Sequence record: OR544956
Strand: one strand, 5' to 3'
Source of the DNA: Escherichia phage vB_EcoM_EP57
Length of the DNA stretch: 64,000 bases
The notes under the pieces are model-generated. The model was not told where the DNA came from, ran no database searches, and saw only the letters and a program-made list of their open reading frames with translations. The translations under genes and the position numbers were made by a program. Shown piece by piece: positions 21,397 through 42,141 of the stretch (positions are counted from its first letter, which is position 1; every line of letters begins with the position of its first letter).

Positions 21397-21413
21397 GTTT
21401 TATTCAATAGATA

Positions 21414-21437
21414 GCAAAAAGCCTCCAATAAGGAGGC
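21414..21437 (-). terminator. rho-independent terminator closing the tRNA operon
   Basis: minus strand GCCTCC-TTATT-GGAGGC followed by TTTTT. Confidence 0.6.
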
Positions 21438-21553
21438 TAATAAATACTGTTAAGTTGAAATGCTTTATTATAATTGTGCGTTAAGGAGTCGCACCCCTCC
21501 ATCTTAGAAGGAACCAGGCAAGGTCTTCAAAGATACCGCTGGCAAGCGATATT

Positions 21554-21632
21554 TGGAGGCGGGAATTGGATTTGAACCAATGATCTCCAGCATATGAAAC
21601 TGGCGAGGACGACCAGACTCCTCTATCCCGCT
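21554..21632 (-). tRNA. tRNA-Met (anticodon CAT), CCA encoded
   Basis: hand-folded cloverleaf; T arm ATTGG-TTCAAAT-CCAAT; anticodon loop TTCATAT; A1:C72 mismatch noted. Confidence 0.5.
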
Positions 21633-21638
21633 ATTATG

Positions 21639-21710
21639 TATCCCGTGCTGGATTCGAACCAGCATCACAATAAGCTGTGGAACTCTTATCCTGTAAGTCT
21701 AACGGGAAAC
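21639..21710 (-). tRNA. tRNA-like element, anticodon not resolved (possible pseudo-tRNA)
   Basis: T arm GCTGG-TTCGAAT-CCAGC and acceptor-like ends, but no canonical anticodon arm found by eye. Confidence 0.25.
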
Positions 21711-21784
21711 TGGTTGTTTCGACAAGAATCGAACTTGTGTCTCACGATTATCAGTCGTGGGTTCTACCATTGAACTACGAAACA
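21711..21784 (-). tRNA. tRNA-Ile (anticodon GAT), CCA encoded
   Basis: acceptor TGTTTCG/CGAAACA, D arm GTTC-AATGGTA-GAAC, anticodon arm CACGA-CTGATAA-TCGTG. Confidence 0.65.
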
Positions 21785-21790
21785 TTAAAT

Positions 21791-21867
21791 TGGTCGGAAT
21801 TGCAGGATTCGAACCTGCGACCCTACGCTCCCAAAGCGTATGCTCTACCAAACTGAGCTAAATTCCG
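21791..21867 (-). tRNA. tRNA-Pro (anticodon TGG), CCA encoded
   Basis: acceptor CGGAATT/AATTCCG, D arm GCTC-AGTTTGGTA-GAGC, anticodon arm TACGC-TTTGGGA-GCGTA. Confidence 0.65.
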
Positions 21868-21960
21868 TCATAACATTCTAAAGGTACACCGCAAAAGAAA
21901 GTGTTCGGCGGCTCCTCGTTTTTAACTTCACACTTGAGGTAGTGACTCACCTTTGTTATA

Positions 21961-22036
21961 TGGCTGGTCTGTCTGGATTTGAACCAAACCTACGACAGTC
22001 AAAGTGTCGTGTGCTACCGGACTACACTACAAACCA
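21961..22036 (-). tRNA. tRNA-Gln (anticodon TTG), CCA encoded
   Basis: anticodon arm CGACA-CTTTGAC-TGTCG; T loop TTCAAAT; acceptor pairs with one G-U. Confidence 0.55.
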
Positions 22037-22134
22037 ATAAATCATTTAATGAAGGGCAACCAGAAGAGGTGTGAGAGAAGGAGAAAACCATGAGTAAAAG
22101 AGAAAGTTTTCTGGCAACCCTTTATTAAATAATT

Positions 22135-22208
22135 TGGAGCGTTCTACGAGGATCGAACTCGTGCCGCCGACTTGGAAGGACGGAATGCTACCGCTACACC
22201 AAGAACGC
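22135..22208 (-). tRNA. tRNA-Gly (anticodon TCC), CCA encoded
   Basis: acceptor GCGTTCT/AGAACGC; anticodon loop CTTCCAA; T arm ACGAG-TTCGATC-CTCGT. Confidence 0.5.
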
Positions 22209-22219
22209 CCTACATCTTT

Positions 22220-22249
22220 ACTATACTACATTTTACTATTGGTTGTCAA
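22220..22249 (-). promoter_or_regulatory. promoter with AACTATTGACAA element, start site just upstream of the tRNA at 22208
   Basis: minus strand TTGACA - 18 nt - TATAGT. Confidence 0.45.
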
Positions 22250-22438
22250 TAGTTTTATTGAGTGGGACAGTGACGAGTATCCCGTTGGGTGACTAGCCCT
22301 ACGTTCGGTAAGCTAACTTAAAATAATACAAAACCAAAGTCAAATATTATTCTTCGTTGCTGTCGATGGGAGAGCCGCTTCTCATTTTGCCCCATCCAAC
22401 CCTACTCCGGTCAAGTTTCGGGTAACTCTTTTTGTGTG

Positions 22439-22527
22439 ATCAACACAATACTAAGAACACTGTCTTTCGAACAGACCTTGTGCACAGGATACGACGATCA
22501 ATCACAGTGCTCTTAATGTTGTGTTGG
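22439..22527 (-). ncRNA. tRNA-like degenerate element (GTTCGAA loop, 8-bp terminal pairing), not a canonical tRNA
   Basis: ends CAACACAA/TTGTGTTG pair; internal hairpin with TTCGAA loop; no cloverleaf could be completed. Confidence 0.2.
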
Positions 22528-22599
22528 TGCTCCCACACTGAATCGAACAGAGATCCACGGATTACAAAACCGTTGTAATAGCCATTATACTATAGGAGC
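22525..22599 (-). tRNA. tRNA-Thr (anticodon TGT), CCA encoded
   Basis: acceptor GCTCCTA/TGGGAGC (one G-U); anticodon loop TTTGTAA. Confidence 0.45.
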
Positions 22600-22605
22600 A
22601 AAGCT

Positions 22606-22682
22606 GGGACTCGGCAGGATTCGATACCTGCAATTCCAGAAGCCTCTTGGCGACTGGGGGTTTACCTTAACTCTACAAGTCC
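22606..22682 (-). tRNA. tRNA, anticodon not resolved by eye
   Basis: acceptor GGACTTG/CGAGTCC pairs; T-arm-like GCAGG-TATCGAAT-CCTGC with 8-nt loop. Confidence 0.3.
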
Positions 22683-22689
22683 ATAATTC

Positions 22690-22775
22690 TGGCGATGAGT
22701 ATAGGATTTGAACCTATATCGTTCTTTCGAACACGGATTAACAGTCCGCCGCTTAAACCATTCAGCCAACTCATC
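22690..22775 (-). tRNA. class II (long variable arm) tRNA with apparent anticodon GTT
   Basis: acceptor GATGAGT/ACTCATC; anticodon arm GCGGA-CTGTTAA-TCCGT; variable arm GTTC-GAAA-GAAC; T arm ATAGG-TTCAAAT-CCTAT. Confidence 0.45.
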
Positions 22776-22781
22776 TTAATT

Positions 22782-22869
22782 TGGTGGTGAGTGATGGAGT
22801 TGAACCACCCGAATCGCAATGATAACAGATTTACAGTCTGCCCCGCTACCCCTACGGAATTAACTCACC
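22782..22869 (-). tRNA. tRNA-Tyr (anticodon GTA), class II, CCA encoded
   Basis: acceptor GGTGAGT/ACTCACC; anticodon arm GCAGA-CTGTAAA-TCTGT; T arm GGTGG-TTCAACT-CCATC. Confidence 0.6.
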
Positions 22870-22947
22870 TAAATACTAATATTTAAATTCTTTTTAAAAT
22901 AGCCAGTGTTCACACCACTAACTATGTAAGCCATATTAAAAAGAACT

Positions 22948-23033
22948 TGGCGGTAGATGTAGGACTCGAACCTACACGCCGTTTCCGACTACAGTTTAGC
23001 AAACTGTCGTGGCTACCATTTCACCAATCTACC
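22948..23033 (-). tRNA. tRNA-Ser (anticodon GCT), class II, CCA encoded
   Basis: acceptor GGTAGAT/ATCTACC; anticodon arm ACAGT-TTGCTAA-ACTGT; long variable arm. Confidence 0.6.
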
Positions 23034-23038
23034 TAATC

Positions 23039-23129
23039 TGGCGGAAGGAGGGAGAGTCGAACTCCCAAGGCTCTTTCAAGCTCGGCGGTTTTCAAGACCG
23101 TTTTCGTCGCCACGTCGATTTGCCCTTCC
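23039..23129 (-). tRNA. tRNA-Ser (anticodon TGA), class II, CCA encoded
   Basis: acceptor GGAAGGG/TCCTTCC; anticodon loop CTTGAAA; long variable arm; T arm GGGAG-TTCGACT-CTCCC. Confidence 0.5.
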
Positions 23130-23138
23130 ATACTTATA

Positions 23139-23167
23139 ATCTAACATAAAATAATGTTTGTTGTCAA
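23139..23167 (-). promoter_or_regulatory. promoter with AACTATTGACAA element, start site at the tRNA-Ser 5' end
   Basis: minus strand TTGACA - 17 nt - TTAGAT. Confidence 0.4.
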
Positions 23168-23363
23168 TAGTTTTTTAAAACATTTTACCATGAATGGTGA
23201 CTCCACCAACCCCCGTTCTCCACGAACGGTGCTCTTCGAGCATTTATGTCTTCTAATATAACCGTGGCCTTTGTTTATAATGTCTGACATACTTGCCTCA
23301 TTCTCTGCCACCATGATCAGTAGTGGGTTCAAATTACTTGAGCTAATTCATGTTAAAATGTTC

Positions 23364-23438
23364 TGGTGTCTTTACAAGGAATCGAACCTTGACTAAGAGT
23401 TTAGAAGACTCCTGTGCTATCCATTACACCATAAAGAC
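23364..23438 (-). tRNA. tRNA-Arg (anticodon TCT), CCA encoded
   Basis: acceptor GTCTTTA/TAAAGAC; anticodon arm GGAGT-CTTCTAA-ACTCT; T arm CAAGG-TTCGATT-CCTTG. Confidence 0.6.
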
Positions 23439-23440
23439 GT

Positions 23441-23515
23441 TGGTGGCCCTGGCTGGTTTCGATCCAGCTACCTATCGGTTATGAGCCGACAGCTCTCCCA
23501 TTGAGCTACAGGGCC
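23441..23515 (-). tRNA. tRNA-Met (anticodon CAT; could be fMet or Ile2), CCA encoded
   Basis: acceptor GGCCCTG/CAGGGCC; D arm GCTC-AATGGGA-GAGC; anticodon arm GTCGG-CTCATAA-CCGAT. Confidence 0.6.
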
Positions 23516-25332: not shown

Positions 25333-26132
25333 GCAACTATCCAATTACAGGCGTAACCTATTCTTGTGTAGCAAAAGGTGGTTTATATACAGTAGTGGAA
25401 TTTCCAAAACCTGCCGGAATATCTAAAGTGTTTGATCCTGTGGTTATCTATGAAGATCTTAGAACAGGTCAACGTTACTGGAGATTTGTGAATGACTTTT
25501 TAGATCGTATGGAGGTAGTAAGTGGCGAAAACACCGAAGAAGTTATCAAAGCCAACGTTACTAAGAAACCGAAAAACGAGGTTCTCAAAGTAGCCAAATC
25601 AGTTCCTAAGAAAGATAAATTTGATACGGAGGCATTCGTCTTTGACACACCAATCGAGAAGATTGAAGAAGCGTTGCAACGTCTTGAGGAGCAGGAGGCA
25701 GATCCAATGGCTGAACCACTCGCTGAAGCAAAAAACATTGGTCGTTCCAATGAAACAACACCAGAAGAACAAGCTGAACTTGAAGCTTTTGCCAAATGGA
25801 CAAAACAGTTAAAGAATGGCTATTATAAAACAAAAGAAGAAGCTGAAAACCATGTTCCTTCCACACCAATGAAATGCCAGGATTATAAAGATTATCCTGA
25901 AAGGGTTGTGTTCCCTGGTTATGCACAATACAAACTGAACGGGTTACGTTCTATGATTAACATGAAAGGAGAGTGTTTATCAAAAGCTGGGGAAGTGTAC
26001 AACCTGCCACCTCATTGGAAAGGTATTCCAAACTTTATTAGTGAAGTTGTTGGTCATCCTCTTGATGGTGAAGTGTTTGCTGGGTTAGGTGTCCTTAGTC
26101 TGCAACAAATTAACAGTGCTTGCAGTAGTTGA
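25329..26132 (+). CDS. ATP-dependent DNA ligase-like nucleotidyltransferase, N-terminal part (motifs I and III); apparently split from 26089..26592
   Basis: KLNGLR (motif I, KxDG-like) and LDGEVF (motif III); frame ends 16 codons after motif III. Confidence 0.45.
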   Translation: MSNYPITGVTYSCVAKGGLYTVVEFPKPAGISKVFDPVVIYEDLRTGQRYWRFVNDFLDRMEVVSGENTEEVIKANVTKKPKNEVLKVAKSVPKKDKFDTEAFVFDTPIEKIEEALQRLEEQEADPMAEPLAEAKNIGRSNETTPEEQAELEAFAKWTKQLKNGYYKTKEEAENHVPSTPMKCQDYKDYPERVVFPGYAQYKLNGLRSMINMKGECLSKAGEVYNLPPHWKGIPNFISEVVGHPLDGEVFAGLGVLSLQQINSACSS

Positions 26133-26592
26133 AGATTATGGTCTTGATGAGCTTATTTGTGTAGTTCATACAGAGTATATTGAAAACCAAGAACAGTTTG
26201 ATGCTTTCTATGAAAAAGCTTTACTTGAGAAAGCTGAAGGTGTAGTATATCGTAATGCTCACGGAGTTTACGAATTTGATAAACGTTCTTATGACGTTAT
26301 TAAACGTAAGCCTCGCCATACGCTTGAAGTTAAAGTAATAAATTCAAAAAGTGATAAAAATGGCGATGGAGTGTTGACAGGTGAGATGGAAAATGGTAAA
26401 GTAGTCGAATTCTTAATGCGTAAAGATGCTCATGAGACTATCAATTATCGTAAAGCAGAGAATGCTTCTACCTTGATTAATCAGTTCGTTGAAATAGAGT
26501 ATGAAGAATTTTCAGATGAAGGTATTCCAACAAAACCTGTTGGTGTTCGTATTCGAGAAATGATCCCAGGCACTTGGGAACCAGCAGAATAA
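26089..26592 (+). CDS. DNA ligase-like nucleotidyltransferase, C-terminal part (motifs IV and V), +1 frame relative to upstream ORF
   Basis: EGVVYR (motif IV) and DVIKRK (motif V); GTG start directly after an in-frame TAG, no RBS. Confidence 0.45.
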   Translation: MSLVCNKLTVLAVVEDYGLDELICVVHTEYIENQEQFDAFYEKALLEKAEGVVYRNAHGVYEFDKRSYDVIKRKPRHTLEVKVINSKSDKNGDGVLTGEMENGKVVEFLMRKDAHETINYRKAENASTLINQFVEIEYEEFSDEGIPTKPVGVRIREMIPGTWEPAE

Positions 26593-27607: not shown

Positions 27608-28486
27608 ATGTTTGTAAAATCTTTTAAATCCGCTCTGCCTATGGTTGTTGGTGACAATGCTTCTGTAGCATCCCTTAACAGCATTACAGATATTCCTCTG
27701 GAATTTGTAACAGCAGAAGGCTCCCAGTCACACACTATTGGTCTTGTTCGTTTTGAAGATGACTCTAAATTTGTAAAAGAGTTCTCAGATCTTGAACTGC
27801 TTAATGTAGGTCAATCTGTGAAGAAGGTAGATAAAAAGAAAGTTAAACGTATTCTGAATGAACGTCTAGAAGAAATGCGTCAGGACATGGAGAGCGAAGG
27901 TAAAGAGTTTTATGTCGATAAAGAAGTAGTCAAAGCAATGAAGGAAGATATTGAATTTGCACTATTGCCTGAAACAGAACCTGAAGATTTCTTTAACTAT
28001 GTTGTCTTGGATAAAACTACGAATCTTCTTTATGTTCTTAATGGAAGTAAAAAGGTTGCAGAAGAGATTACTTCTTTCCTCCGTTCCGTTCTGGGGACTT
28101 TCCCTTCGGTAGGTTTTAGTGTGCATGAAGAAGCTATTGTAAAAGGTTTTGGTGAATTGCTGGAGAATCACGAAGCAGATCGTATTACTCTCGGAAATTA
28201 TATCAAAATGGAGGATAGCGAGGGCGTTGTTGTTTGGAGTAAAGAATCCCTATACGAGTCTAAAGCTGTCGAACTAAAAGAAGATGGTAAAGATGTTGTT
28301 GCAATCGGTCTTGAATATGACGGTGTTGTAGATTTTGTAGTGGATAAAGAGTTTAAACTTTCTAAACTACGTTTTCCGAAATATTTTGCAGACGAAGAAG
28401 GTAGTATTGAAGCTTCAGTCCTTCTGTGCTTCAATGAGATTCGAGGTCTGATGGAAGATTTAACCAAAGCAACAATCCTTAAATAA
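27608..28486 (+). CDS. RdgC-like recombination-associated protein
   Basis: 292 aa; NLLYVLNGSKKVAEEITSFLRSVLGTFPSV matches the conserved RdgC core as recalled from E. coli RdgC. Confidence 0.5.
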   Translation: MFVKSFKSALPMVVGDNASVASLNSITDIPLEFVTAEGSQSHTIGLVRFEDDSKFVKEFSDLELLNVGQSVKKVDKKKVKRILNERLEEMRQDMESEGKEFYVDKEVVKAMKEDIEFALLPETEPEDFFNYVVLDKTTNLLYVLNGSKKVAEEITSFLRSVLGTFPSVGFSVHEEAIVKGFGELLENHEADRITLGNYIKMEDSEGVVVWSKESLYESKAVELKEDGKDVVAIGLEYDGVVDFVVDKEFKLSKLRFPKYFADEEGSIEASVLLCFNEIRGLMEDLTKATILK

Positions 28487-32889: not shown

Positions 32890-33888
32890 ATGACAAAACA
32901 GATTTCGGCTAGTATTATTGCGCATTCCATTACTGAAGACGGAAAAGAGATTGTAACTTTTGAACTAGAATATCCACGTATTATTCATTCAGAATTGATG
33001 ACTCACCGCCTGTTCAGTCGTAATGCTGCTTCTAGCCGTGCTATACCTGTTAAAACACTGATTGAAATGGTGCGAAATCAACCTGCTCGTCCTTATCGTT
33101 TTGGGGCTAACCAACCTGGTATGCAGGATAAAGGTGTTGATCATGACGCTCTTATTGATGCAGGTTATACTGCTCAAGAGTGGTGGGATCTTGCCGCGCT
33201 TAGTGCAGCACGTTTTGCAGAAGAATTCTCTTTGGCAGGGTACCACAAACAAGTTGCAAACCGTCTTCTGGAACCTTTCCAACGAATTAAAACAGTTCTG
33301 ACAGCAACAGAATATGAAAATTTCTGGTGGCTACGTGATGACAAAGAAGCCGATCCTACTATCGAAGCTTTGGCTAAAGAGATGCACAAAGAGTATGAAG
33401 GATCTACACCAGAAGTGCTGAAACCAGGGCAATGGCACACACCTTATGTAGACCATTTCTATGATAATATTGGTACAGAAGGTGACGATCATTTTGTTTT
33501 TGGTGGATACTACGTTCAAGATGAATCTGGAGAAGTTGTTGTGCTTACTTTGGAAGAAGCCAAAGCTATTTCAGCTTCGTGTTGTGCACAGGTTAGCTAT
33601 CGTCGTTTAAATGCAACTAAAGATAAAGCTTTAGATATCTATGGTCGCTTGCTGACTGGGCGCAAGGTTCATGCTTCTCCGTTTGAACATCAAGCTACTC
33701 CAATTCAAGAAACATGCGAACAATATGGAGAGAACTGTTTTGAAGATTTGTTTATCAATGCTCCTTGGGATTTTAACTCTTGGGAACCAGGTATTACCCA
33801 TGTAGATCGTAATGGTAAGTTTTGGTCTGGCAATTTCAAAGGCTGGATTCAACATCGTCAACTTTTAACAAATCATACTAAATGGTGA
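32890..33888 (+). CDS. thyX: ThyX-like flavin-dependent thymidylate synthase family protein with divergent signature and C-terminal extension
   Basis: MTHRLFSRNAASSRA aligns to the ThyX RHRxxSxxxxSSRY signature with first Arg replaced by Thr and Tyr by Ala; 332 aa. Confidence 0.45.
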   Translation: MTKQISASIIAHSITEDGKEIVTFELEYPRIIHSELMTHRLFSRNAASSRAIPVKTLIEMVRNQPARPYRFGANQPGMQDKGVDHDALIDAGYTAQEWWDLAALSAARFAEEFSLAGYHKQVANRLLEPFQRIKTVLTATEYENFWWLRDDKEADPTIEALAKEMHKEYEGSTPEVLKPGQWHTPYVDHFYDNIGTEGDDHFVFGGYYVQDESGEVVVLTLEEAKAISASCCAQVSYRRLNATKDKALDIYGRLLTGRKVHASPFEHQATPIQETCEQYGENCFEDLFINAPWDFNSWEPGITHVDRNGKFWSGNFKGWIQHRQLLTNHTKW

Positions 33889-34664: not shown

Positions 34665-36905
34665 TTGATTCGTTTTGTAACTAAATCTAATGGTAAGACA
34701 GAGGAGTTTAATCCAGAAAAACTTCGCAAGTGGTCTGAATTTGCAGCAGGTAAACTAAACTGGTCTGAAATTGAATTAGAAGCTGTGAAGCGGTGTTATG
34801 ACGGTGTGTCTACACGTGATCTGCATAAAGCAATGATTGCAGCGTGTATTGACAAGAAAACACAAGCTTACAGTGATATGGCAGGAAGACTTCTTCTGGG
34901 TATGATTTACAAACAGGCTCATGGGGGATACCACAGTATCCCTTCACTGAATACCTTTTATCATGATATGGTAGAACGTGGACATTGGGCTAAAATGGAT
35001 TATACTGATGAAGAGATCAAAGAAATAGGTAAGATTGTAAAGCATAATAAAAATCTAACTTATGGTTATTCTGTTTTACGTCAGATGGTAGATAAATATC
35101 TTATTCGAGATGCAGTAAACGATGTGGTGCATGAGTCTCCACAATTTCTTTTCATTGGTATCGCAATGAAGGTTATGGAGATCCAACCAAAAGAACGCCG
35201 TATAGAAGATATTAAAAAACTTTATACTTATGTTAGCGATCTTAAGATTAATCTGCCATCGCCGTATCTGACAACTCTACGAACTCCAATCAAAGGAAGT
35301 GCGTCTTGTTGTTTATTCCGTGCAGACGATACGGCAGAATCTTTAGCCATTGCTAATTACTTAGCTCATGAGTATACGTTGAATAACGCAGGTATTGGTG
35401 TTAATCTTCAAACTCGTGCCACAGGTCAAGGTGTTAAGAATAATCGTATTATTCATGGTGGTCTTCTTCCGTATCTGAAATGGATGGAAGATAGTGTTGG
35501 AGCTTCGAAGCAAGCAAGCCGTGGAGGTAGTGCTACAGTTACCTTCACCATACTTGAACCAGACTTCGACGATCTGATTCGACTGAAGAATCCAACAACA
35601 CCTATAGATAAACGAGTAGACAAACTGGATTATTCTATTGTTGTTAACCGTTCGTTCTTGCGTCGAGCAGCAAAAAACGAAGATTGGATGTTAGTTAGTT
35701 GTGATGATGCTCCTGAACTTTATGAAGCTTTGTATAAAAGTGAAGAAGAGTTTGATGCAGTTTATGACAAAGTAAGCCGTCGTCGCATTAAGAAAAAATT
35801 TGTTAAGGCTCGTGATCTTCTGACAGAGATTATTGTTCAACGTGCAGAAACAGGACGTATTTACATGTTCTTTGCTGACAACGTTAACAACCATACACCT
35901 TTCCTGGATACGGTGTATCAATCAAACCTGTGTCAAGAGATCTTCTTACCAACTAAAGCTTTCCACAGTATGCCGGATCTCTTTACTGGTGAGAATACAG
36001 AAGATCAAGAATTGGCTTTATGCTTCTTATCTTCTATTGTTGCTGGTCGTGTCTTACCTGAAGAATATGAGGATGTTGCATATTACACTGTATTGACAAT
36101 TGACAACGTTATTGAAACAATGGATTATCCATTTAAACATAACGAAATAACTGCTAAAGCACGTAGATCTATTGGTGTAGGTATTACAAACTTAGCGCAT
36201 TATTTGGCAAGTAATTTTGTAAATTATTCAGATGCTTATGCTAAAAAATTAATGCATGAACTTGCAGAACGTCATTACTTTTGGTTGGCAAAAGCCTCTC
36301 TGCGTCTGGCTAAGGAAAAAGGTAATGCAGAATGGATCGATAAGACCAAATGGCCTCAAGGTTGGCTACCAATTGACACTTATGCTAAAACAGTAGATAG
36401 TATCGGTAATTTTGATCTTAAAATGGACTGGGAAGGCTTACGTGCTGAAATCATTGAACAAGGTGGTATCCGTAACAGTGTCTTGGCTGCTATTGCACCT
36501 AATGAGTCCAGCAGTTTGGTAAGCAATACTACTAACTCTCTGTACCCTGTTCGTGATACTATTATGTATAAACAAAGTCAGAAAGGTAGCGTATTATTTA
36601 TTGTTCCAGATTACGAAAAACTGAAAATGTTCTACCAATCCGCCTGGGATACTCCGGCTAAAGACCTTGCAGAAATGTATGGTATCTTTACCAAGTTTAC
36701 GGACCAAGGAATTTCTTGTGATTCTTGGTTAGATTATTCTAAATTGGTAGGGGGACGTTTATCAGTTAAAGAAGAGATGAAATTTATTTTGAACTTTGCT
36801 AGACTGGGTGGTAAGTCATTGTATTACCTTAATAGTAGAACAAAATCAGCAGATTCTTTAGCACAAGAAGATTCTGATGGTGGTTGTGAAGCTTGCAAGA
36901 TGTGA
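34665..36905 (+). CDS. nrdA: ribonucleoside-diphosphate reductase large subunit
   Basis: 746 aa; N-terminal ATP-cone (VTKSNGKTEEFNPEKLRKW); TTG start after GGGAGGAG; followed by nrdB. Confidence 0.8.
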   Translation: MIRFVTKSNGKTEEFNPEKLRKWSEFAAGKLNWSEIELEAVKRCYDGVSTRDLHKAMIAACIDKKTQAYSDMAGRLLLGMIYKQAHGGYHSIPSLNTFYHDMVERGHWAKMDYTDEEIKEIGKIVKHNKNLTYGYSVLRQMVDKYLIRDAVNDVVHESPQFLFIGIAMKVMEIQPKERRIEDIKKLYTYVSDLKINLPSPYLTTLRTPIKGSASCCLFRADDTAESLAIANYLAHEYTLNNAGIGVNLQTRATGQGVKNNRIIHGGLLPYLKWMEDSVGASKQASRGGSATVTFTILEPDFDDLIRLKNPTTPIDKRVDKLDYSIVVNRSFLRRAAKNEDWMLVSCDDAPELYEALYKSEEEFDAVYDKVSRRRIKKKFVKARDLLTEIIVQRAETGRIYMFFADNVNNHTPFLDTVYQSNLCQEIFLPTKAFHSMPDLFTGENTEDQELALCFLSSIVAGRVLPEEYEDVAYYTVLTIDNVIETMDYPFKHNEITAKARRSIGVGITNLAHYLASNFVNYSDAYAKKLMHELAERHYFWLAKASLRLAKEKGNAEWIDKTKWPQGWLPIDTYAKTVDSIGNFDLKMDWEGLRAEIIEQGGIRNSVLAAIAPNESSSLVSNTTNSLYPVRDTIMYKQSQKGSVLFIVPDYEKLKMFYQSAWDTPAKDLAEMYGIFTKFTDQGISCDSWLDYSKLVGGRLSVKEEMKFILNFARLGGKSLYYLNSRTKSADSLAQEDSDGGCEACKM

Positions 36906-36913
36906 TGAAACTA

Positions 36914-36935
36914 GGGGCTTCGGCCCCTTTTTATT
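36914..36935 (+). terminator. stem-loop GGGGCTTCGGCCCC plus T-run
   Basis: GGGGC-TTCG-GCCCC then TTTTTATT. Confidence 0.5.
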
Positions 36936-36949
36936 GAGGAGAATTTTAA

Positions 36950-38035
36950 ATGGCAGCAATTAATTTACACAATGAAGTTTACAAAACAGGAAAATATCCA
37001 GTATTTTTGGGGGAGCAATTAGGGATCTTTGATTCTGTTAACGTAACTTATCCAGAAATGCACAAACTCTACAAACTTCAAAAAGCACAAGATTGGGATG
37101 AAAACGAAGTTAATCTGGATCAGACACGTAAAGATTTCGTAGCTTGTTCTAAAAACAACTATGATGTTATGATTAAAAACTTATCGTTCCAATGGGAAAA
37201 TGATTCTCTTGCAAAATCAATCATCACTTTGTTCTCTCCATTCTTGAGTAACAATGAAGCCTGTGCTATGATGATGAAGCAGAGTGAAATGGAAGTTCTC
37301 CATGCGTTAACGTATTCTGAAATAATCCGTCAATGTACTCCAGATCCAATTGAAGTCATCAATCAGATTATGATTAATGATAAAATTTTCAATCGTATGG
37401 GTATCATTGCTGATATCATGGGTCAGTTGGAAGAAGCTGGTCATAAGTATGCTCTAGGATTGATTGAAGCTAACGATGAACTTCGCTTGCTGATTCTTAA
37501 AGGGATGGTAGCCCTGATTGGATTAGAAGGTATTCAGTTTATATCTTCCTTCTCTGCTACTTTTGCTATGGCAGAACAACAATTGTTTGTTGGGGCTTGT
37601 AAACTGATCCAGAAAATTATGCTAGATGAAATCTTGCATGTTAAGATGGACTATGCTGTAATTGATGCATTGATGCATGACCCAATTTGGCGTAAAATTT
37701 ACGAAGATAATATTGAAGAGTTGACTTTGATCCTCGACACTGTTGTTGAACAAGAGGAACAGTGGTGTGACTACCTGTTTAGTGAAGGTCGTTTTATTGT
37801 AGGTCTTAACGCCGAATTGTCTAAACAGTGGGTTTATTTCAATGCTGCTCCTATTTATCGTCGATTGAAAATGAAAGCCAAGTTTAAAGCACCTAAACAT
37901 AGTCCTTTAGCTTGGATGGAAAAATGGTTGAATCCTGATTTGATTCAGTCAGCAGCCCAAGAGATTCAGTTAACTAATTACAAATTGAATTCAGCTAACA
38001 AAGATCTCTCTGATGATGAGGAGCTTGACTTCTAA
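36950..38035 (+). CDS. nrdB: ribonucleoside-diphosphate reductase small subunit
   Basis: 361-aa ORF directly after nrdA, RBS and ATG; size typical of class I R2. Confidence 0.7.
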   Translation: MAAINLHNEVYKTGKYPVFLGEQLGIFDSVNVTYPEMHKLYKLQKAQDWDENEVNLDQTRKDFVACSKNNYDVMIKNLSFQWENDSLAKSIITLFSPFLSNNEACAMMMKQSEMEVLHALTYSEIIRQCTPDPIEVINQIMINDKIFNRMGIIADIMGQLEEAGHKYALGLIEANDELRLLILKGMVALIGLEGIQFISSFSATFAMAEQQLFVGACKLIQKIMLDEILHVKMDYAVIDALMHDPIWRKIYEDNIEELTLILDTVVEQEEQWCDYLFSEGRFIVGLNAELSKQWVYFNAAPIYRRLKMKAKFKAPKHSPLAWMEKWLNPDLIQSAAQEIQLTNYKLNSANKDLSDDEELDF

Positions 38036-38862: not shown

Positions 38863-39855
38863 ATGCGCTATCTGGTAACAGGTGGTCTTGGTTTTATTGG
38901 GAGTGCCGTGGTGCGCTCTCTTTGTCAAGATCCTAATAACGAAGTTTTTGTCGTTGATAAGATGGGCTATGCAGCAGATATTGAGAATGTAGGCGATATC
39001 ACTCACGTTAAACTAAGCATAACAGATTTGGCAAACGAAACCCAGGTCAAAAGTTTAGTAGTAGAGTGCAATCCTGACTTCATCATTCACTTAGCGGCAG
39101 AAAGTCATGTGGATAATTCTATCAAGAATCCACGAGTTTTCATCGACTCCAATATTATCGGTACATACAATTTATTGGAAGCTGCAAGGCTCCTCCCAAA
39201 AAATAAACTGAAGATGTTCGTACACGTCTCCACAGACGAAGTGTACGGCGATATGGCAGACTCTGGCGTTCCCTTTACCGAAAAGACAGCTTATGCCCCT
39301 TCAAGCCCGTACAGTGCGTCTAAGGCAGCATCTGACCATCTTGTGAAAGCTTGGCACCGCACCTACGATTTGCCTGTTGTGATAACCAACTGCTCCAATA
39401 ACTTTGGGCCTTATCAACATCCAGAAAAGCTGATCCCAAAAATCATCACAAGTATCTTGACGAATAAAGAGATTCCGGTGTATGGTAAAGGCGACCAGGT
39501 GCGAGACTGGCTTTTTGTTGAGGATCATGCGCGAGCTATTCTTCAAGTGGCAACAGGTGGAGAACCAGGTCAAACGTATAATGTTGGAACACGTAATCCC
39601 AAAACCAATATGGAGATCATCTATATGGTTTGTGACTATATGGATACTGTACATCCAGAAGCAGTAACCTACCCTTCTTCCAACTTGATAACTTTTGTTG
39701 AAGATCGTAAAGGACATGACTTGCGTTATGAAATCAATCCTTCTAAGATAGAGTCTGAACTGGGCTGGAGTGCAAACTCTACATTTGAACAAGATCTCTA
39801 CTCAACGATTGAATGGTACTTAAACAACCCTCAATGGTGGAGTGAGAAAATTTAA
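38863..39855 (+). CDS. rmlB: dTDP-glucose 4,6-dehydratase
   Basis: [17 protein letters not shown] Rossmann motif; catalytic [15 protein letters not shown] (YxxxK); 330 aa. Confidence 0.9.
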
Positions 39856-39863
39856 GGAGGGTT

Positions 39864-40742
39864 ATGAAAGGTATTATTTTGGCGGGAGGAAGTGGAACCC
39901 GCCTTCATCCGGTAACACGCAGTGTGAGCAAGCAATTGCTCCCTGTGTATGACAAACCCATGATCTACTACCCTTTATCGGTATTGATGTTGGCTGACAT
40001 TAAGGATATTTTAATCATCACCACACCAGGTGATCAGGAAGACTTTGAGTATCTTCTCGGAGATGGGTCTATGTTTGGGATAAAACTCACTTACGCAATC
40101 CAATCCGAGCCACGAGGTCTTGCGGAAGCTTTCATCATAGGTAAAGATTTTATCGGAGAAGACTCTGTTGCTCTTATTTTAGGTGACAACCTATTCTTCG
40201 GACAAAGCTTTGGTAAACTACTGATTAACGCTAGTGAGATGGTAGATGTTTGGGGTGGAGCTTGTATCTTCGGGTATTTGGTGAAAGATCCTGAACGATT
40301 CGGTGTGGTTGAATTTGGGAGTAATCGTCAAGCTATTTCTATTGAAGAGAAACCTGAAAATCCTAAATCAGATTATGCTGTCACAGGTTTGTATTTCTAT
40401 GATAACTCTGTTATTCAACGTGCATTAGAAGTAACCCCTTCCGCGCGTGGAGAACTGGAGATCACTGATATCAATCGCAGCTACCTAGAAGACAGCAAGT
40501 TACAAGTGGAAGTTCTCGGACGAGGATTTACTTGGCTTGACACAGGAACACACGCCAGTCTGATGGAAGCTGGTCAATTCGTGCAGACTATTGAGAACCG
40601 TCAAGGATTGAAGATTGCGTGCCTGGAAGAAATTGCTTTCAAAAAAGGGTGGATTTCTTTAGAGACTTTGGTGTATCATGGAAACTCACTGAAGAAAACA
40701 GAGTACGGGCAATACCTACTCAAATTAGCGGAGAGAAAATGA
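39864..40742 (+). CDS. rmlA: glucose-1-phosphate thymidylyltransferase
   Basis: [39 protein letters not shown] signature; 292 aa. Confidence 0.9.
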
Positions 40743-41305
40743 AAGTAGAAAAAACAAAAATTGAAGGTGCGGTAATTATCAAACCAGACGTTTATAAAGA
40801 TGATCGTGGTTTCTTTCTAGAAACATATAATGAACAAAAATACGAAGATATTATTGGTAGACAAACTTTCGTTCAAGATAACATGTCTAAATCAAACTTC
40901 GGTGTTTTGCGAGGAATGCACTTTCAAACAAATAACCCGCAAGGTAAGCTTGTTCGTTGTGTAAGTGGGGAAGTATTGGATTTCGCTGTAGATTTACGTA
41001 AAGATAGTCCAACTTACGGTGCTTGGGACGGTGTTGTTCTTCGTGCACGACACCATACGCAGTTTTGGCTTCCACCTGGTTTGGCACATGGTTTTATAGT
41101 TTTGAGTATGGATGCGATCTTTGAATACAAATGCACAACTCCATACGACCCTTCTAGTGAACAAAGTTTACGTTGGGATGATCCTGATATAGGGATCGAT
41201 TGGGGCTTCGATATGATTTTTGACGAAGGTTTTAAACCTATTCTATCAACAAAAGATGCAATGGCTAAATCTTTTCAACAGTTACGTAGCGAGGGTGTAT
41301 GCTAA
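40739..41305 (+). CDS. rmlC: dTDP-4-dehydrorhamnose 3,5-epimerase
   Basis: ATG at 40739 overlaps rmlA stop (ATGA); cupin with RGMHFQ motif; 188 aa (track start 40619 is an upstream alternative start inside rmlA). Confidence 0.8.
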
Positions 41306-42141
41306 CATATCTGGTATTGGGCGGTAATGGACAACTGGGACAAGCTTTACGTAAAGTGGCTCCTTCAAATGTATCTTTAATTTATCCTAAAGAACGTGTA
41401 GATATTACAAATTTTGAAGCTGTGCGAAACGCTATTATTGAAGATTATGTAGATGGTGTTATTAATTGCGCCGCTTATACGGCTGTAGATAAAGCAGAAC
41501 ATGATTTTGCTACTGCTTTGGCTGTTAATGCGTATGGACCTGCAAATATTGCGGCAGTGTGCAGCAAACTTAAAATTGATTTTGTGCATATTTCTACAGA
41601 CTATATTTTTAATTATTCTCATCCTATTTTTGAAGATACTACACCTAACCCAATAAACAATTATGGGTATACGAAAGAACTTGGTGAAAAAATGGTGCGA
41701 GGAGTTAACCCAAATGCATATATTATTCGAACAGCCTCGGTATATAGCGAATTTGGAAATAACTTTCTAAAAACCATGTTGTCTCGCTATAATGATGGAC
41801 AACGTGATTTTATTATTGTTGCTGATCAGTTCTCTTGTCCAACATATGCTCCAGATTTAGCAGAAGCTATTTTTGAAGTATTAAAAACAGGTTGGTCAAG
41901 GTCTGTTAAGACTTACCATTTTGCAGGAAGCCATCTTATTTCTTGGGCGGAGTTTGCGGAAAAAATCTTGACACAGATGCCAGAACCTGTTAAGATATCG
42001 GCGGTATCAGCTTCAACCTATAATGCTCCAGCAGCACGTCCGGTGAAGTCACAACTAGTAACCAGTCACTATCTTACAAAATCAGATTTAAATAAAGGTA
42101 TTGAACAGTCTTTAGCAGTATTACTTAATAAGGAGAGGTAA
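41299..42141 (+). CDS. rmlD: dTDP-4-dehydrorhamnose reductase
   Basis: N-terminal LVLGGNGQLG; YGYTK (YxxxK); 280 aa; overlaps rmlC stop. Confidence 0.7.
   Translation: MLTYLVLGGNGQLGQALRKVAPSNVSLIYPKERVDITNFEAVRNAIIEDYVDGVINCAAYTAVDKAEHDFATALAVNAYGPANIAAVCSKLKIDFVHISTDYIFNYSHPIFEDTTPNPINNYGYTKELGEKMVRGVNPNAYIIRTASVYSEFGNNFLKTMLSRYNDGQRDFIIVADQFSCPTYAPDLAEAIFEVLKTGWSRSVKTYHFAGSHLISWAEFAEKILTQMPEPVKISAVSASTYNAPAARPVKSQLVTSHYLTKSDLNKGIEQSLAVLLNKER

Follow-up and report, generated by a model that had tools for sequence, protein, structure and literature searches.

In textbooks, the long variable arm of class II transfer RNAs (tRNAs) is restricted to the tRNAs for leucine, serine, selenocysteine, and, in bacteria, tyrosine. 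Bacterial tRNA-Asn(GUU), including that of Escherichia coli, is a class I molecule of 76 nucleotides (nt) with a variable region of 5 nt. The identity set of bacterial asparaginyl-tRNA synthetase (AsnRS) consists of the three anticodon bases and the discriminator G73, with U1-A72 being a determinant of transamidation (GatCAB), and the main basis of serine identity is the variable arm, to which acceptor pairs add in E. coli, with G1-C72 and G2-C71 absolutely conserved (Giege and Eriani, PMC9976931). A long arm combined with an anticodon other than those of Ser, Leu, or Tyr has been described in allo-tRNAs, which are charged by seryl-tRNA synthetase (SerRS), are found in part in phages, and provide a precedent for anticodon-blind charging (Mukai et al. 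2017, PMC5389517). Phages also carry copies of tRNAs that are attacked by host nucleases. In E. coli tRNA-Asn, AriB, the nuclease of the PARIS system, has its cleavage site between nucleotides 40 and 41 (UAAUC/C, cut at the slash); in an AlphaFold 3 model, it also contacts D-loop positions 16-17. PARIS is neutralized when tRNA-Lys, tRNA-Thr, and tRNA-Asn of phage T5 are co-expressed (PMC12409363). Here, we analyze a tRNA-Asn(GUU) gene with a class II-like long variable arm that is located at positions 22690-22775, on the minus strand, of a 64,000-nt stretch of DNA (hereafter, the window; sequence record OR544956) from Escherichia phage vB_EcoM_EP57, a phAPEC8-like (Phapecoctavirus) E. coli myovirus. 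This is a genuine tRNA gene with a long arm, far beyond chance, and it probably represents a functional, Asn-decoding phage tRNA to which an arm was added. Held by compensatory evolution across many unrelated phages, such a class II-shaped tRNA-Asn is a clean exception to the class I/class II rule.

A previous sequence-only reading of the window had described a cloverleaf with a long variable arm (GTTC-GAAA-GAAC) and a GTT anticodon in the loop CTGTTAA, allowing that this could be a hand-folding error. All three features hold, and a folding error is ruled out by the agreement of three independent tools on a single fold. ARAGORN placed a tRNA-Asn (gtt) exactly at 22690-22775, and the Rfam model RF00005 matched positions 22693-22775 over its full length with 62.0 bits (E = 3.4e-12), well above the curated gathering score of 29; relative to the model, the variable region contains 12 inserted nt. 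At minimum free energy, the 86-nt RNA folds into a full cloverleaf with a fifth hairpin, GUUC-GAAA-GAAC, and none of the three tools refolded the sequence into a canonical tRNA-Ser, tRNA-Leu, or tRNA-Tyr. The stability of this fold relative to shuffled sequences is weak as evidence (z-score of only -1.7), and we therefore relied on covariation instead. From 5' to 3', the tRNA reads GAUGAGU UG GCUG AAUGGUUU AAGC G GCGGA CUGUUAA UCCGU GUUC-GAAA-GAAC GAU AUAGG UUCAAAU CCUAU ACUCAUC G CCA. It consists of an acceptor stem of 7 base pairs (bp; GAUGAGU/ACUCAUC) that includes G1-C72 and A2-U71, a 3-bp D stem (GCU/AGC) that includes C11-G24 and is followed by a G13-A22 mismatch and a D loop containing GG, the anticodon stem-loop GCGGA-CUGUUAA-UCCGU, a 15-nt variable region (GUUCGAAAGAACGAU), and a T arm with a 5-bp stem (AUAGG-UUCAAAU-CCUAU), that is, a 7/5 acceptor/T-stem layout (Table 1).

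Table 1. The tRNA-Asn gene, its parts, and the tRNA cluster in the window
Feature	Position	Strand	Basis
Complete tRNA-Asn(GUU) gene with class II-like long variable arm; 86 nt, CCA encoded and counted	22690..22775	-	ARAGORN, Rfam RF00005, fold
Anticodon GUU (tRNA positions 34-36), loop CUGUUAA	22740..22742	-	Sequence; ARAGORN anticodon at position 34
CGGCGGACUGUUAAUCCGU, 19 nt: last D-stem base, position 26, and whole anticodon stem-loop	22733..22751	-	Identical to E. coli tRNA-Asn
Extra arm hairpin GUUC-GAAA-GAAC, 4-bp stem and GNRA tetraloop	22721..22732	-	Fold; compensatory changes at four pairs
GAU, three unpaired nt between extra arm and T stem, Tyr-like spacer	22718..22720	-	Comparison with phage tRNA-Ser and tRNA-Tyr
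Discriminator G73	22693	-	Sequence; AsnRS identity element
Encoded CCA	22690-22692	-	Sequence
tRNA cluster, 12 tRNAs	21554..23515	-	ARAGORN, 10 genes; Rfam, 2 more
Promoter-like sites	23754-23725, 23167-23138, 22249-22220	-	Consensus matches only
Terminator-like hairpin, just downstream of last tRNA	21438-21420	-	Consensus match only
tRNA-Tyr(GUA), A73, long arm	22785..22869	-	Rfam, 39 bits; missed by ARAGORN
tRNA-Ser(GCU), 86 nt, G2-C71, 2 unpaired nt after arm	22948..23033	-	ARAGORN, Rfam, sequence
tRNA-Ser(UGA)-like gene, unusual D arm	23043..23129	-	Rfam; uncalled by ARAGORN

The 601 bases around the gene are 99.8% identical to those of phages PNJ1809-36, nieznany, and tuntematon. Comparison with orthologues, which the sequence-only reading had proposed as a check, showed that the gene is 96-100% conserved among phAPEC8-like phages, with fully identical copies in some of them, and it is annotated as tRNA-Asn in dozens of phAPEC8-like genomes. 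Altogether, 225 phage records in GenBank match the gene over at least 80% of its length. Diverged long-arm tRNA-Asn of 83-86 nt were found in phi92 (Justusliebigvirus), in the T5-like Epseptimavirus and Tequintavirus, in Proteus phage Stubb, and in T4-like Klebsiella phages, and about 395 T5-like records match the tRNA-Cys/tRNA-Asn locus at least in part, some of them holding the short T5-type gene. In T5 (locus L127, 7953-8525) and Bas31 (L205, 1-425), an open reading frame (ORF) for a homing endonuclease separates tRNA-Cys from the short tRNA-Asn, whose 5' end it overlaps; relatives that lack this ORF have a long-arm tRNA-Asn in the same place, which suggests that replacement of the tRNA at this locus is linked to the homing endonuclease.

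To survey the family, we scanned IMG/VR with a pattern consisting of GGACTGTTAATCC, then 16-27 nt, then GGTTC, in which the anticodon is fixed and position 73 is free. The scan yielded at least 98 tRNA-Asn of at least 80 nt, with at least 73 distinct sequences; the 73 distinct long-arm sequences among the matches listed, together with the window copy, form the 74-sequence set used below. When applied to 185,579 bacterial and archaeal species genomes (one per species), the same pattern detected 65 loci, of which about 20 were true long-arm tRNA-Asn, and no long-arm homologue was present in 5,426 complete E. coli genomes, prophages included, where only chance 35-nt matches occurred. Thus, long-arm tRNA-Asn is common in phages and almost absent from bacteria. 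Most of the cellular representatives, for example, those in Micromonospora, are found inside arrays of 10-36 tRNAs, and arrays of that kind are associated with mobile elements. Several Micromonospora arrays of 32-36 genes contain the long-arm gene as the only tRNA-Asn. Four chromosomal loci of Micromonospora and Verrucosispora (L132, L133, L142, and L183) accommodate 23-36 tRNA genes within 8 kilobases (kb), the sole tRNA-Asn in these arrays being a long-arm molecule of 89-90 nt with U1-A72 and G73.

The extra arm shows signs of selection rather than drift. In an alignment of 40 homologues, 91% of the cells were paired; the corresponding values were 65% for shuffled controls and 32-45% when the partners were slid. 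Each of the four pairs that make up the extra helix has undergone compensatory changes, and the acceptor stem and the T stem also covary. The extra stem comprises 3-5 bp in 62 of the 74 long-arm sequences and is preceded by 0-1 nt and followed, in 58 of the 74, by 3-4 unpaired nt. Half of the loops (37/74) are GAAA, the most common variant (30), or GCAA or GUAA (7 more). An unlikely alternative is that the gene is a functional tRNA-Asn in which the arm has no specific role, phage tRNA structure being relaxed and such hairpins neutral or merely stabilizing the fold. Variable-arm architecture is indeed loose in phages, where long-arm Cys, Thr, Trp, Ile, Met, and Glu tRNAs occur, where the T5-like tRNA-Leu is only 77 nt long and 48 of the 113 tRNA-Leu from the loci sampled fall below 81 nt, and where short and long tRNA-Asn have a D-arm in common. 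A neutral arm is nevertheless disfavored by the maintenance of the helix through compensatory changes across very divergent phages, by the strong preference for GNRA loops, by the consistent spacer of 3-4 nt, and by the presence of the arm in at least four phage lineages but nearly never in cellular tRNA-Asn. It is this combination that speaks for selection on the arm.

We then compared the gene with the tRNA families that the long arm brings to mind. The window tRNA has the features to which AsnRS responds, namely the anticodon G34-U35-U36 and the discriminator G73, within a body that departs from the class I architecture of described tRNA-Asn (variable loop of 4-5 nt). Compared with tRNA-Asn of E. 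coli and other bacteria, the anticodon, G73, the 7/5 layout, and the 19-nt segment CGGCGGACUGUUAAUCCGU are the same (the E. coli sequence was verified in 5,425 genomes), whereas the 15-nt variable region with its 4-bp hairpin and the 3-bp D stem with the G13-A22 mismatch differ, as do the first acceptor pairs, which are U1-A72 and C2-G71 in bacterial tRNA-Asn. Many members of the long-arm family have U1-A72 as in bacteria. Across the 74-sequence set, G73, which the search pattern left free, is retained in 70 sequences and U1-A72 in 45.

With bacterial tRNA-Ser, tRNA-Tyr, and tRNA-Leu, the window tRNA shares the long variable arm and a D arm in which the stem has 3 bp and the loop is enlarged; it resembles tRNA-Ser in G73 and tRNA-Tyr in the 3-4-nt spacer and the 3-4-bp extra stem. 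It differs from all of them in having the anticodon of a class I amino acid, lacks the G2-C71 pair of tRNA-Ser and the A73 of tRNA-Tyr and tRNA-Leu, and has a shorter arm than tRNA-Ser. These differences were quantified with tRNAs from the same phage loci (58 Ser, 68 long-arm Asn, 41 Tyr, and 59 Leu). In phage tRNA-Ser, the discriminator is G in 33, U in 20, and A in 5 sequences, G2-C71 is invariant (58/58), U1-A72 never occurs, and the arm consists of 5-7 bp followed by about one unpaired nt. By contrast, long-arm tRNA-Asn contain G73 in 66 of 68 sequences, U1-A72 in 42, and G2-C71 in only 30, with an arm of 3-4 bp that is followed by 3-4 unpaired nt in 53. Phage tRNA-Tyr (A73 in 41/41; arm mostly of 3 bp with 3 unpaired nt after it) and phage tRNA-Leu (A73 in 59/59; variable arm with about one unpaired nt after it) have no diagnostic acceptor pairs. 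The window copy, with G1-C72 followed by A2-U71 and with a 4-bp arm followed by 3 unpaired nt, accordingly falls outside the tRNA-Ser mode; its GUU anticodon differs from those of tRNA-Ser (NGA or GCU), which are not SerRS identity elements but define the decoding family. The spacer geometry of the long-arm tRNA-Asn is that of tRNA-Tyr, from which they differ in the discriminator. The sequence-only reading had also considered that the gene might be a one-base variant of the neighboring tRNA-Tyr with the loop CUGUAAA. That neighbor exists, although it scores low in Rfam (Table 1), but this origin was rejected because both the discriminator, G73 as opposed to A73, and the tRNA body differ, and the Asn gene does not derive from the adjacent tRNA-Tyr.

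An anticodon-independent test was provided by the 17-nt D-arm of the window tRNA, GGCTGAATGGTTTAAGC, which is present in eight phage tRNAs in IMG/VR. Apart from one long-arm tRNA-Met, all of these are tRNA-Asn(GUU): three have long arms, and four are ordinary 74-nt molecules. Among short phage tRNA-Asn (74-75 nt), those at the IMG/VR loci L194, L195, and L202 have the same D-arm as the window gene, and the 75-nt tRNA-Asn of the Kuttervirus Maynard has a closely similar D-arm and the same anticodon arm. These short tRNAs share the anticodon and, except for L202 (U73), G73 with the window gene, and lack the extra arm. The D-arm shared with these armless tRNAs is the clearest sign that the window gene belongs to the Asn lineage and acquired an insertion. 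Less informative was a nearest-relative comparison of its acceptor, D, and T parts, which addressed a possible origin from a Ser, Tyr, or Cys body: the best non-Asn matches were a mixture of Ser, Cys, Ile, and Met tRNAs, tRNA bodies being too short for this purpose. The retention of G73 and U1-A72, the acceptor pairs and arm geometry unlike those of tRNA-Ser, the common D-arm, and the 19 nt identical to the host tRNA jointly mark the gene as an apparent Asn-lineage tRNA that gained an arm, and not as a Ser, Leu, or Tyr body with an Asn anticodon. The other long-arm class I families likewise keep their own marks: G1-C72 and C2-G71 in Thr (7/7), U73 in Cys (7/7), and G73 in Trp (4/4).

If the gene decodes Asn as we propose, its transcript, made as part of the cluster of 12 tRNA genes, would mature into an 86-nt tRNA with an encoded CCA end, which host AsnRS would charge through G34-U35-U36 and G73; the charged tRNA would read AAC and AAU as asparagine. 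What sets the gene apart from cellular tRNA-Asn is a selected insertion in the variable region, a hairpin of 3-5 bp, usually GNRA-capped, followed by 3-4 unpaired nt. We infer charging by AsnRS from the identity elements, and asparagine insertion, without recoding, is the most likely outcome. ARAGORN detected no other tRNA-Asn in the window, and a long-arm gene is likewise the only tRNA-Asn in the examined tRNA region of phage Bas32, which has 26 annotated tRNAs for all 20 amino acids. The phage rmlA gene (39864-40742) has AAC and AAT at two Asn codons, positions 109 and 204 (GDN and D(I/V)N), that are invariant in solved homologues; this codon use, albeit a small sample, agrees with the prediction of standard decoding. 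As an AsnRS substrate in which an inserted hairpin is tolerated, the architecture could serve as a scaffold for tRNA engineering.

The sequence-only reading had instead suggested that a class II body reading Asn codons could be charged by a synthetase that ignores the anticodon, giving recoding. As the principal explanation, this is not supported, given the identity marks kept by the family, the absence of G2-C71 from the window copy, the arm geometry unlike that of tRNA-Ser, the D-arm common to ordinary 74-nt phage tRNA-Asn, the position as the sole tRNA-Asn in full 20-amino-acid phage sets, and AAC or AAT at the invariant Asn residues of RmlA. Nor does the window tRNA have the layout of allo-tRNAs (8/4 or 9/3) or of tRNA-Sec-like molecules (8/5): with its 7-bp acceptor stem and 5-bp T stem, it is canonical in this respect and keeps the Asn marks.

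Several observations nevertheless weigh against plain Asn decoding. The conservation of the anticodon in the metagenomic set was imposed by the search pattern. The overall architecture of the window tRNA (86 nt, D-loop size, 15-nt variable region, GAAA-capped 4-bp stem, and G73) is close to that of the adjacent tRNA-Ser(GCU), and C11-G24 counts among the matches between the two. According to GenBank record AJ604531, which covers the tRNA region of the T5-like "bacteriophage 5," an 83-nt long-arm tRNA-Asn with a CUA anticodon is an amber suppressor, and an 87-nt long-arm tRNA-Thr is noted as an "effective amber suppressor"; the T5 GenBank record states the opposite, no suppression, for the short T5 tRNA-Asn and tRNA-Thr. 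Our literature search found no paper on the AJ604531 suppressor experiments. Because AsnRS and threonyl-tRNA synthetase read the anticodon, the CUA derivatives of these long-arm bodies must be substrates of some other enzyme, which points to some anticodon-independent charging of the T5-like Asn body.

For an Asn body with G73 and a CUA anticodon, SerRS is one candidate. Glutaminyl-tRNA synthetase (GlnRS) could be another in the case of the T5-like derivative: the T5-like long-arm Asn body combines G2-C71, G3-C70, G10, and G73 with a tRNA-Gln-like D-arm, GCCAAGCGGU. These two acceptor pairs, G10, G73, and U35, which the CUA anticodon supplies, are used by GlnRS as identity elements. Selected amber variants of tRNA-Asn insert Gln (PMC9976931). 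The bearing of the AJ604531 note on the window copy is limited by the lack of G2-C71 in that copy, and the wild-type GUU anticodon would let AsnRS compete.

A tRNA with a dual identity, in which the long arm and G73 let the anticodon-ignoring SerRS charge it so that some AAC and AAU codons are read as Ser, is therefore to be weighed, and we consider it quite unlikely, whether the effect were a side effect, deliberate recoding, or statistical diversification of the proteome during infection. Besides the close architectural match to the neighboring tRNA-Ser(GCU), C11-G24 included, the T5-like versions carry both G1-C72 and G2-C71, and it is the CUA derivatives of the T5-like long-arm Asn and Thr tRNAs, as opposed to the short T5 versions, that suppress amber. 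However, the window has A2-U71 where all 58 phage tRNA-Ser have G2-C71, the family as a whole does not maintain this pair and often has the U1-A72 that tRNA-Ser never has, and the shorter arm with 3-4 unpaired nt after it, as opposed to about one, should alter the orientation of the arm. Furthermore, complete phage tRNA sets contain no tRNA-Asn besides this one, AAY codons specify conserved Asn residues, and charging by GlnRS would also explain the amber suppression. In a more general form, the extra arm itself would confer a second, anticodon-independent identity, SerRS being the obvious candidate, such that Asn codons are read partly as Ser or charging is kept up when the Asn route is under attack; the AJ604531 note, with suppression by long-arm and not by short T5 tRNAs, fits this reading, which we still regard as improbable. 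Were the arm to recruit SerRS, this would amount to natural, widespread, phage-borne ambiguity of sense codons.

It is highly improbable that the gene does not function in translation at all and instead is a pseudogene or produces a tRNA-like decoy that titrates a host tRNase or another tRNA-binding factor. The idea of overexpressed viral tRNAs as competitive inhibitors was raised by the authors of the PARIS study (PMC12409363), the anticodon arm is an exact copy of that of the host target, AriB site included, and the T5-like tRNA regions hold several tRNA-like stable RNAs of unknown function. A decoy or pseudogene is, however, hard to reconcile with the intact tRNA features (7-bp acceptor stem, GG in the D loop, T loop UUCAAAU, encoded CCA, and 62 bits in Rfam), the covariation of the acceptor and T stems, the filling of the Asn slot in full tRNA sets, and the activity of the CUA derivative of a homologue in translation.

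Turning to the role of the arm in an Asn-decoding tRNA, we tentatively propose that it makes the phage tRNA structurally unlike host tRNA-Asn and thereby helps it to escape host tRNA-cutting nucleases such as AriB, a possibility to which we give limited credence. Nucleases that bind the anticodon stem as well as the D region would no longer fit a tRNA bearing the arm; located between the anticodon stem and the elbow, the arm could block such enzymes while leaving intact the anticodon and G73, which cannot be changed. Like the nuclease-resistant phage tRNAs already described (T5 Lys, Thr, and Asn against AriB; Bas32 Thr against OLD), the window gene is a phage copy of a nuclease-attacked tRNA. 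In the described cases, escape depends on point substitutions, which lie in the D loop or else at the cut site or close to it, whereas the window tRNA combines an unchanged stem-loop with a whole extra arm: its anticodon stem-loop, including UAAUC/C, is identical to that of the host and contains no substitutions near the cut site. The tRNA-Asn of T5 itself is short, and its anticodon stem has been rewritten; the long-arm type, window copy included, retains the stem-loop of the host without change. Among the tRNAs of class I identity in phage 5, long arms are confined to Thr(UGU) and Asn(GUU), two of the three main targets of AriB, an overlap with a probability of coincidence of about 2% by our own rough count. 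T5 has short forms of these two tRNAs, in which the anticodon stems are altered.

Other observations speak against such a shield. tRNA-Lys(UUU), the main AriB target, has a long arm in none of 70 cases; Kuttervirus has a short tRNA-Asn with an unchanged, host-like anticodon arm; and long-arm Cys, Trp, Ile, and Met tRNAs have no known link to defense. Phage Bas34's own tRNA-Asn, which may be of the long-arm or the short-arm type, was reported to be insufficient (PMC12409363), and the one resistant phage tRNA-Thr tested against OLD, that of Bas32 (OLD preprint), is short. Two potential lines of direct evidence were rejected: the T5 experiments, given that T5 tRNA-Asn is a 78-nt class I molecule with a changed anticodon stem, and the resistance of Bas32 tRNA-Thr to OLD as an effect of the arm, given that this tRNA is 75 nt long. 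If the arm does make the phage copies uncuttable, this would be a new principle of evasion, in which the shape is changed and the identity elements are left untouched, and such evasion at the level of architecture would be useful for predicting the outcomes of phage-defense encounters.

Although the gene is already annotated in hundreds of GenBank records, full-text searches of the literature found no description of a long-arm tRNA-Asn, its class II-like shape, its phage-restricted distribution, or the parallel Thr, Cys, and Trp cases, and the paper on PARIS and tRNAs (PMC12409363) never mentions the variable region. Annotation pipelines label the gene plainly as tRNA-Asn, which hides the long arm. 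The subject is central to ongoing research into phage tRNAs and into immunity that targets tRNAs.

The same phage clusters also contain Thr, Cys, and Trp tRNAs with long arms, as well as short tRNA-Leu. Examples of the former at IMG/VR loci include a Thr tRNA of 87 nt (L019) and Cys and Trp tRNAs of 84 nt (L011); a Met tRNA of 82 nt (L203) and a Glu tRNA of 89 nt (L086) also have long arms. The arms of Thr(UGU), Cys, Trp, Met, Glu, and Ile(GAU) tRNAs are often GNRA-capped, and the discriminator and acceptor marks proper to each are kept. Conversely in size, two tRNA-Leu of phage 5 (L208, 3841-3917 and 8827-8903) are 77 nt long with a 5-nt variable loop and are thus class I-shaped. At seven loci (L023, L026, L028, L030, L031, L062, and L088), ARAGORN predicted tRNA-Ile(UAU) of 91-96 nt with 21-26 nt inserted in the variable region; these inserts contain a common motif such as AGAUUAG, CAGAUAAU, or CUAGAUUGG and may represent a distinct structured insert or an intron.

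In the order of transcription, the window cluster encodes tRNAs for Met, Arg, Ser(UGA), Ser(GCU), Tyr, Asn, Thr, Gly, Gln, Pro, Ile, and Met. The tRNA-Tyr gene has an irregular-looking D arm and is variously labeled in relatives as tRNA-Tyr or "tRNA-Pseudo-GTA / tRNA-OTHER" or left unannotated. For the tRNA-Ser(UGA)-like gene, the best Rfam match was the tRNA-Sec model, at 37 bits (under the threshold of 47 for that model), and some relatives have a second tRNA-Ser annotated at this position. A weak match to the RyhB model at 21413-21467 on the minus strand (27.6 bits; threshold, 55) overlaps the terminator-like hairpin and is most likely merely the terminator of the cluster. The close relative PNJ1809-36 carries genes for a metallophosphatase and an RNA ligase; in a search for tRNA-repair genes beside the cluster, neither had a match in the window. 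The 371-amino-acid ATP-dependent DNA ligase of PNJ1809-36 matches the window in two frames of the plus strand, 25722-26120 and 26110-26589 (about 294 amino acids), a pattern indicative of a frameshift or a pseudogene or of an error in sequencing. Elsewhere, the window encodes an RdgC-like ORF (27608-28486), a Thy1-like ORF (32890-33888), the large and small subunits of ribonucleotide reductase (34665-38035, plus strand), and a dTDP-rhamnose set consisting of an RmlB-like dehydratase, the RmlA thymidylyltransferase, and an RmlD-like reductase (38863-42141, plus strand).

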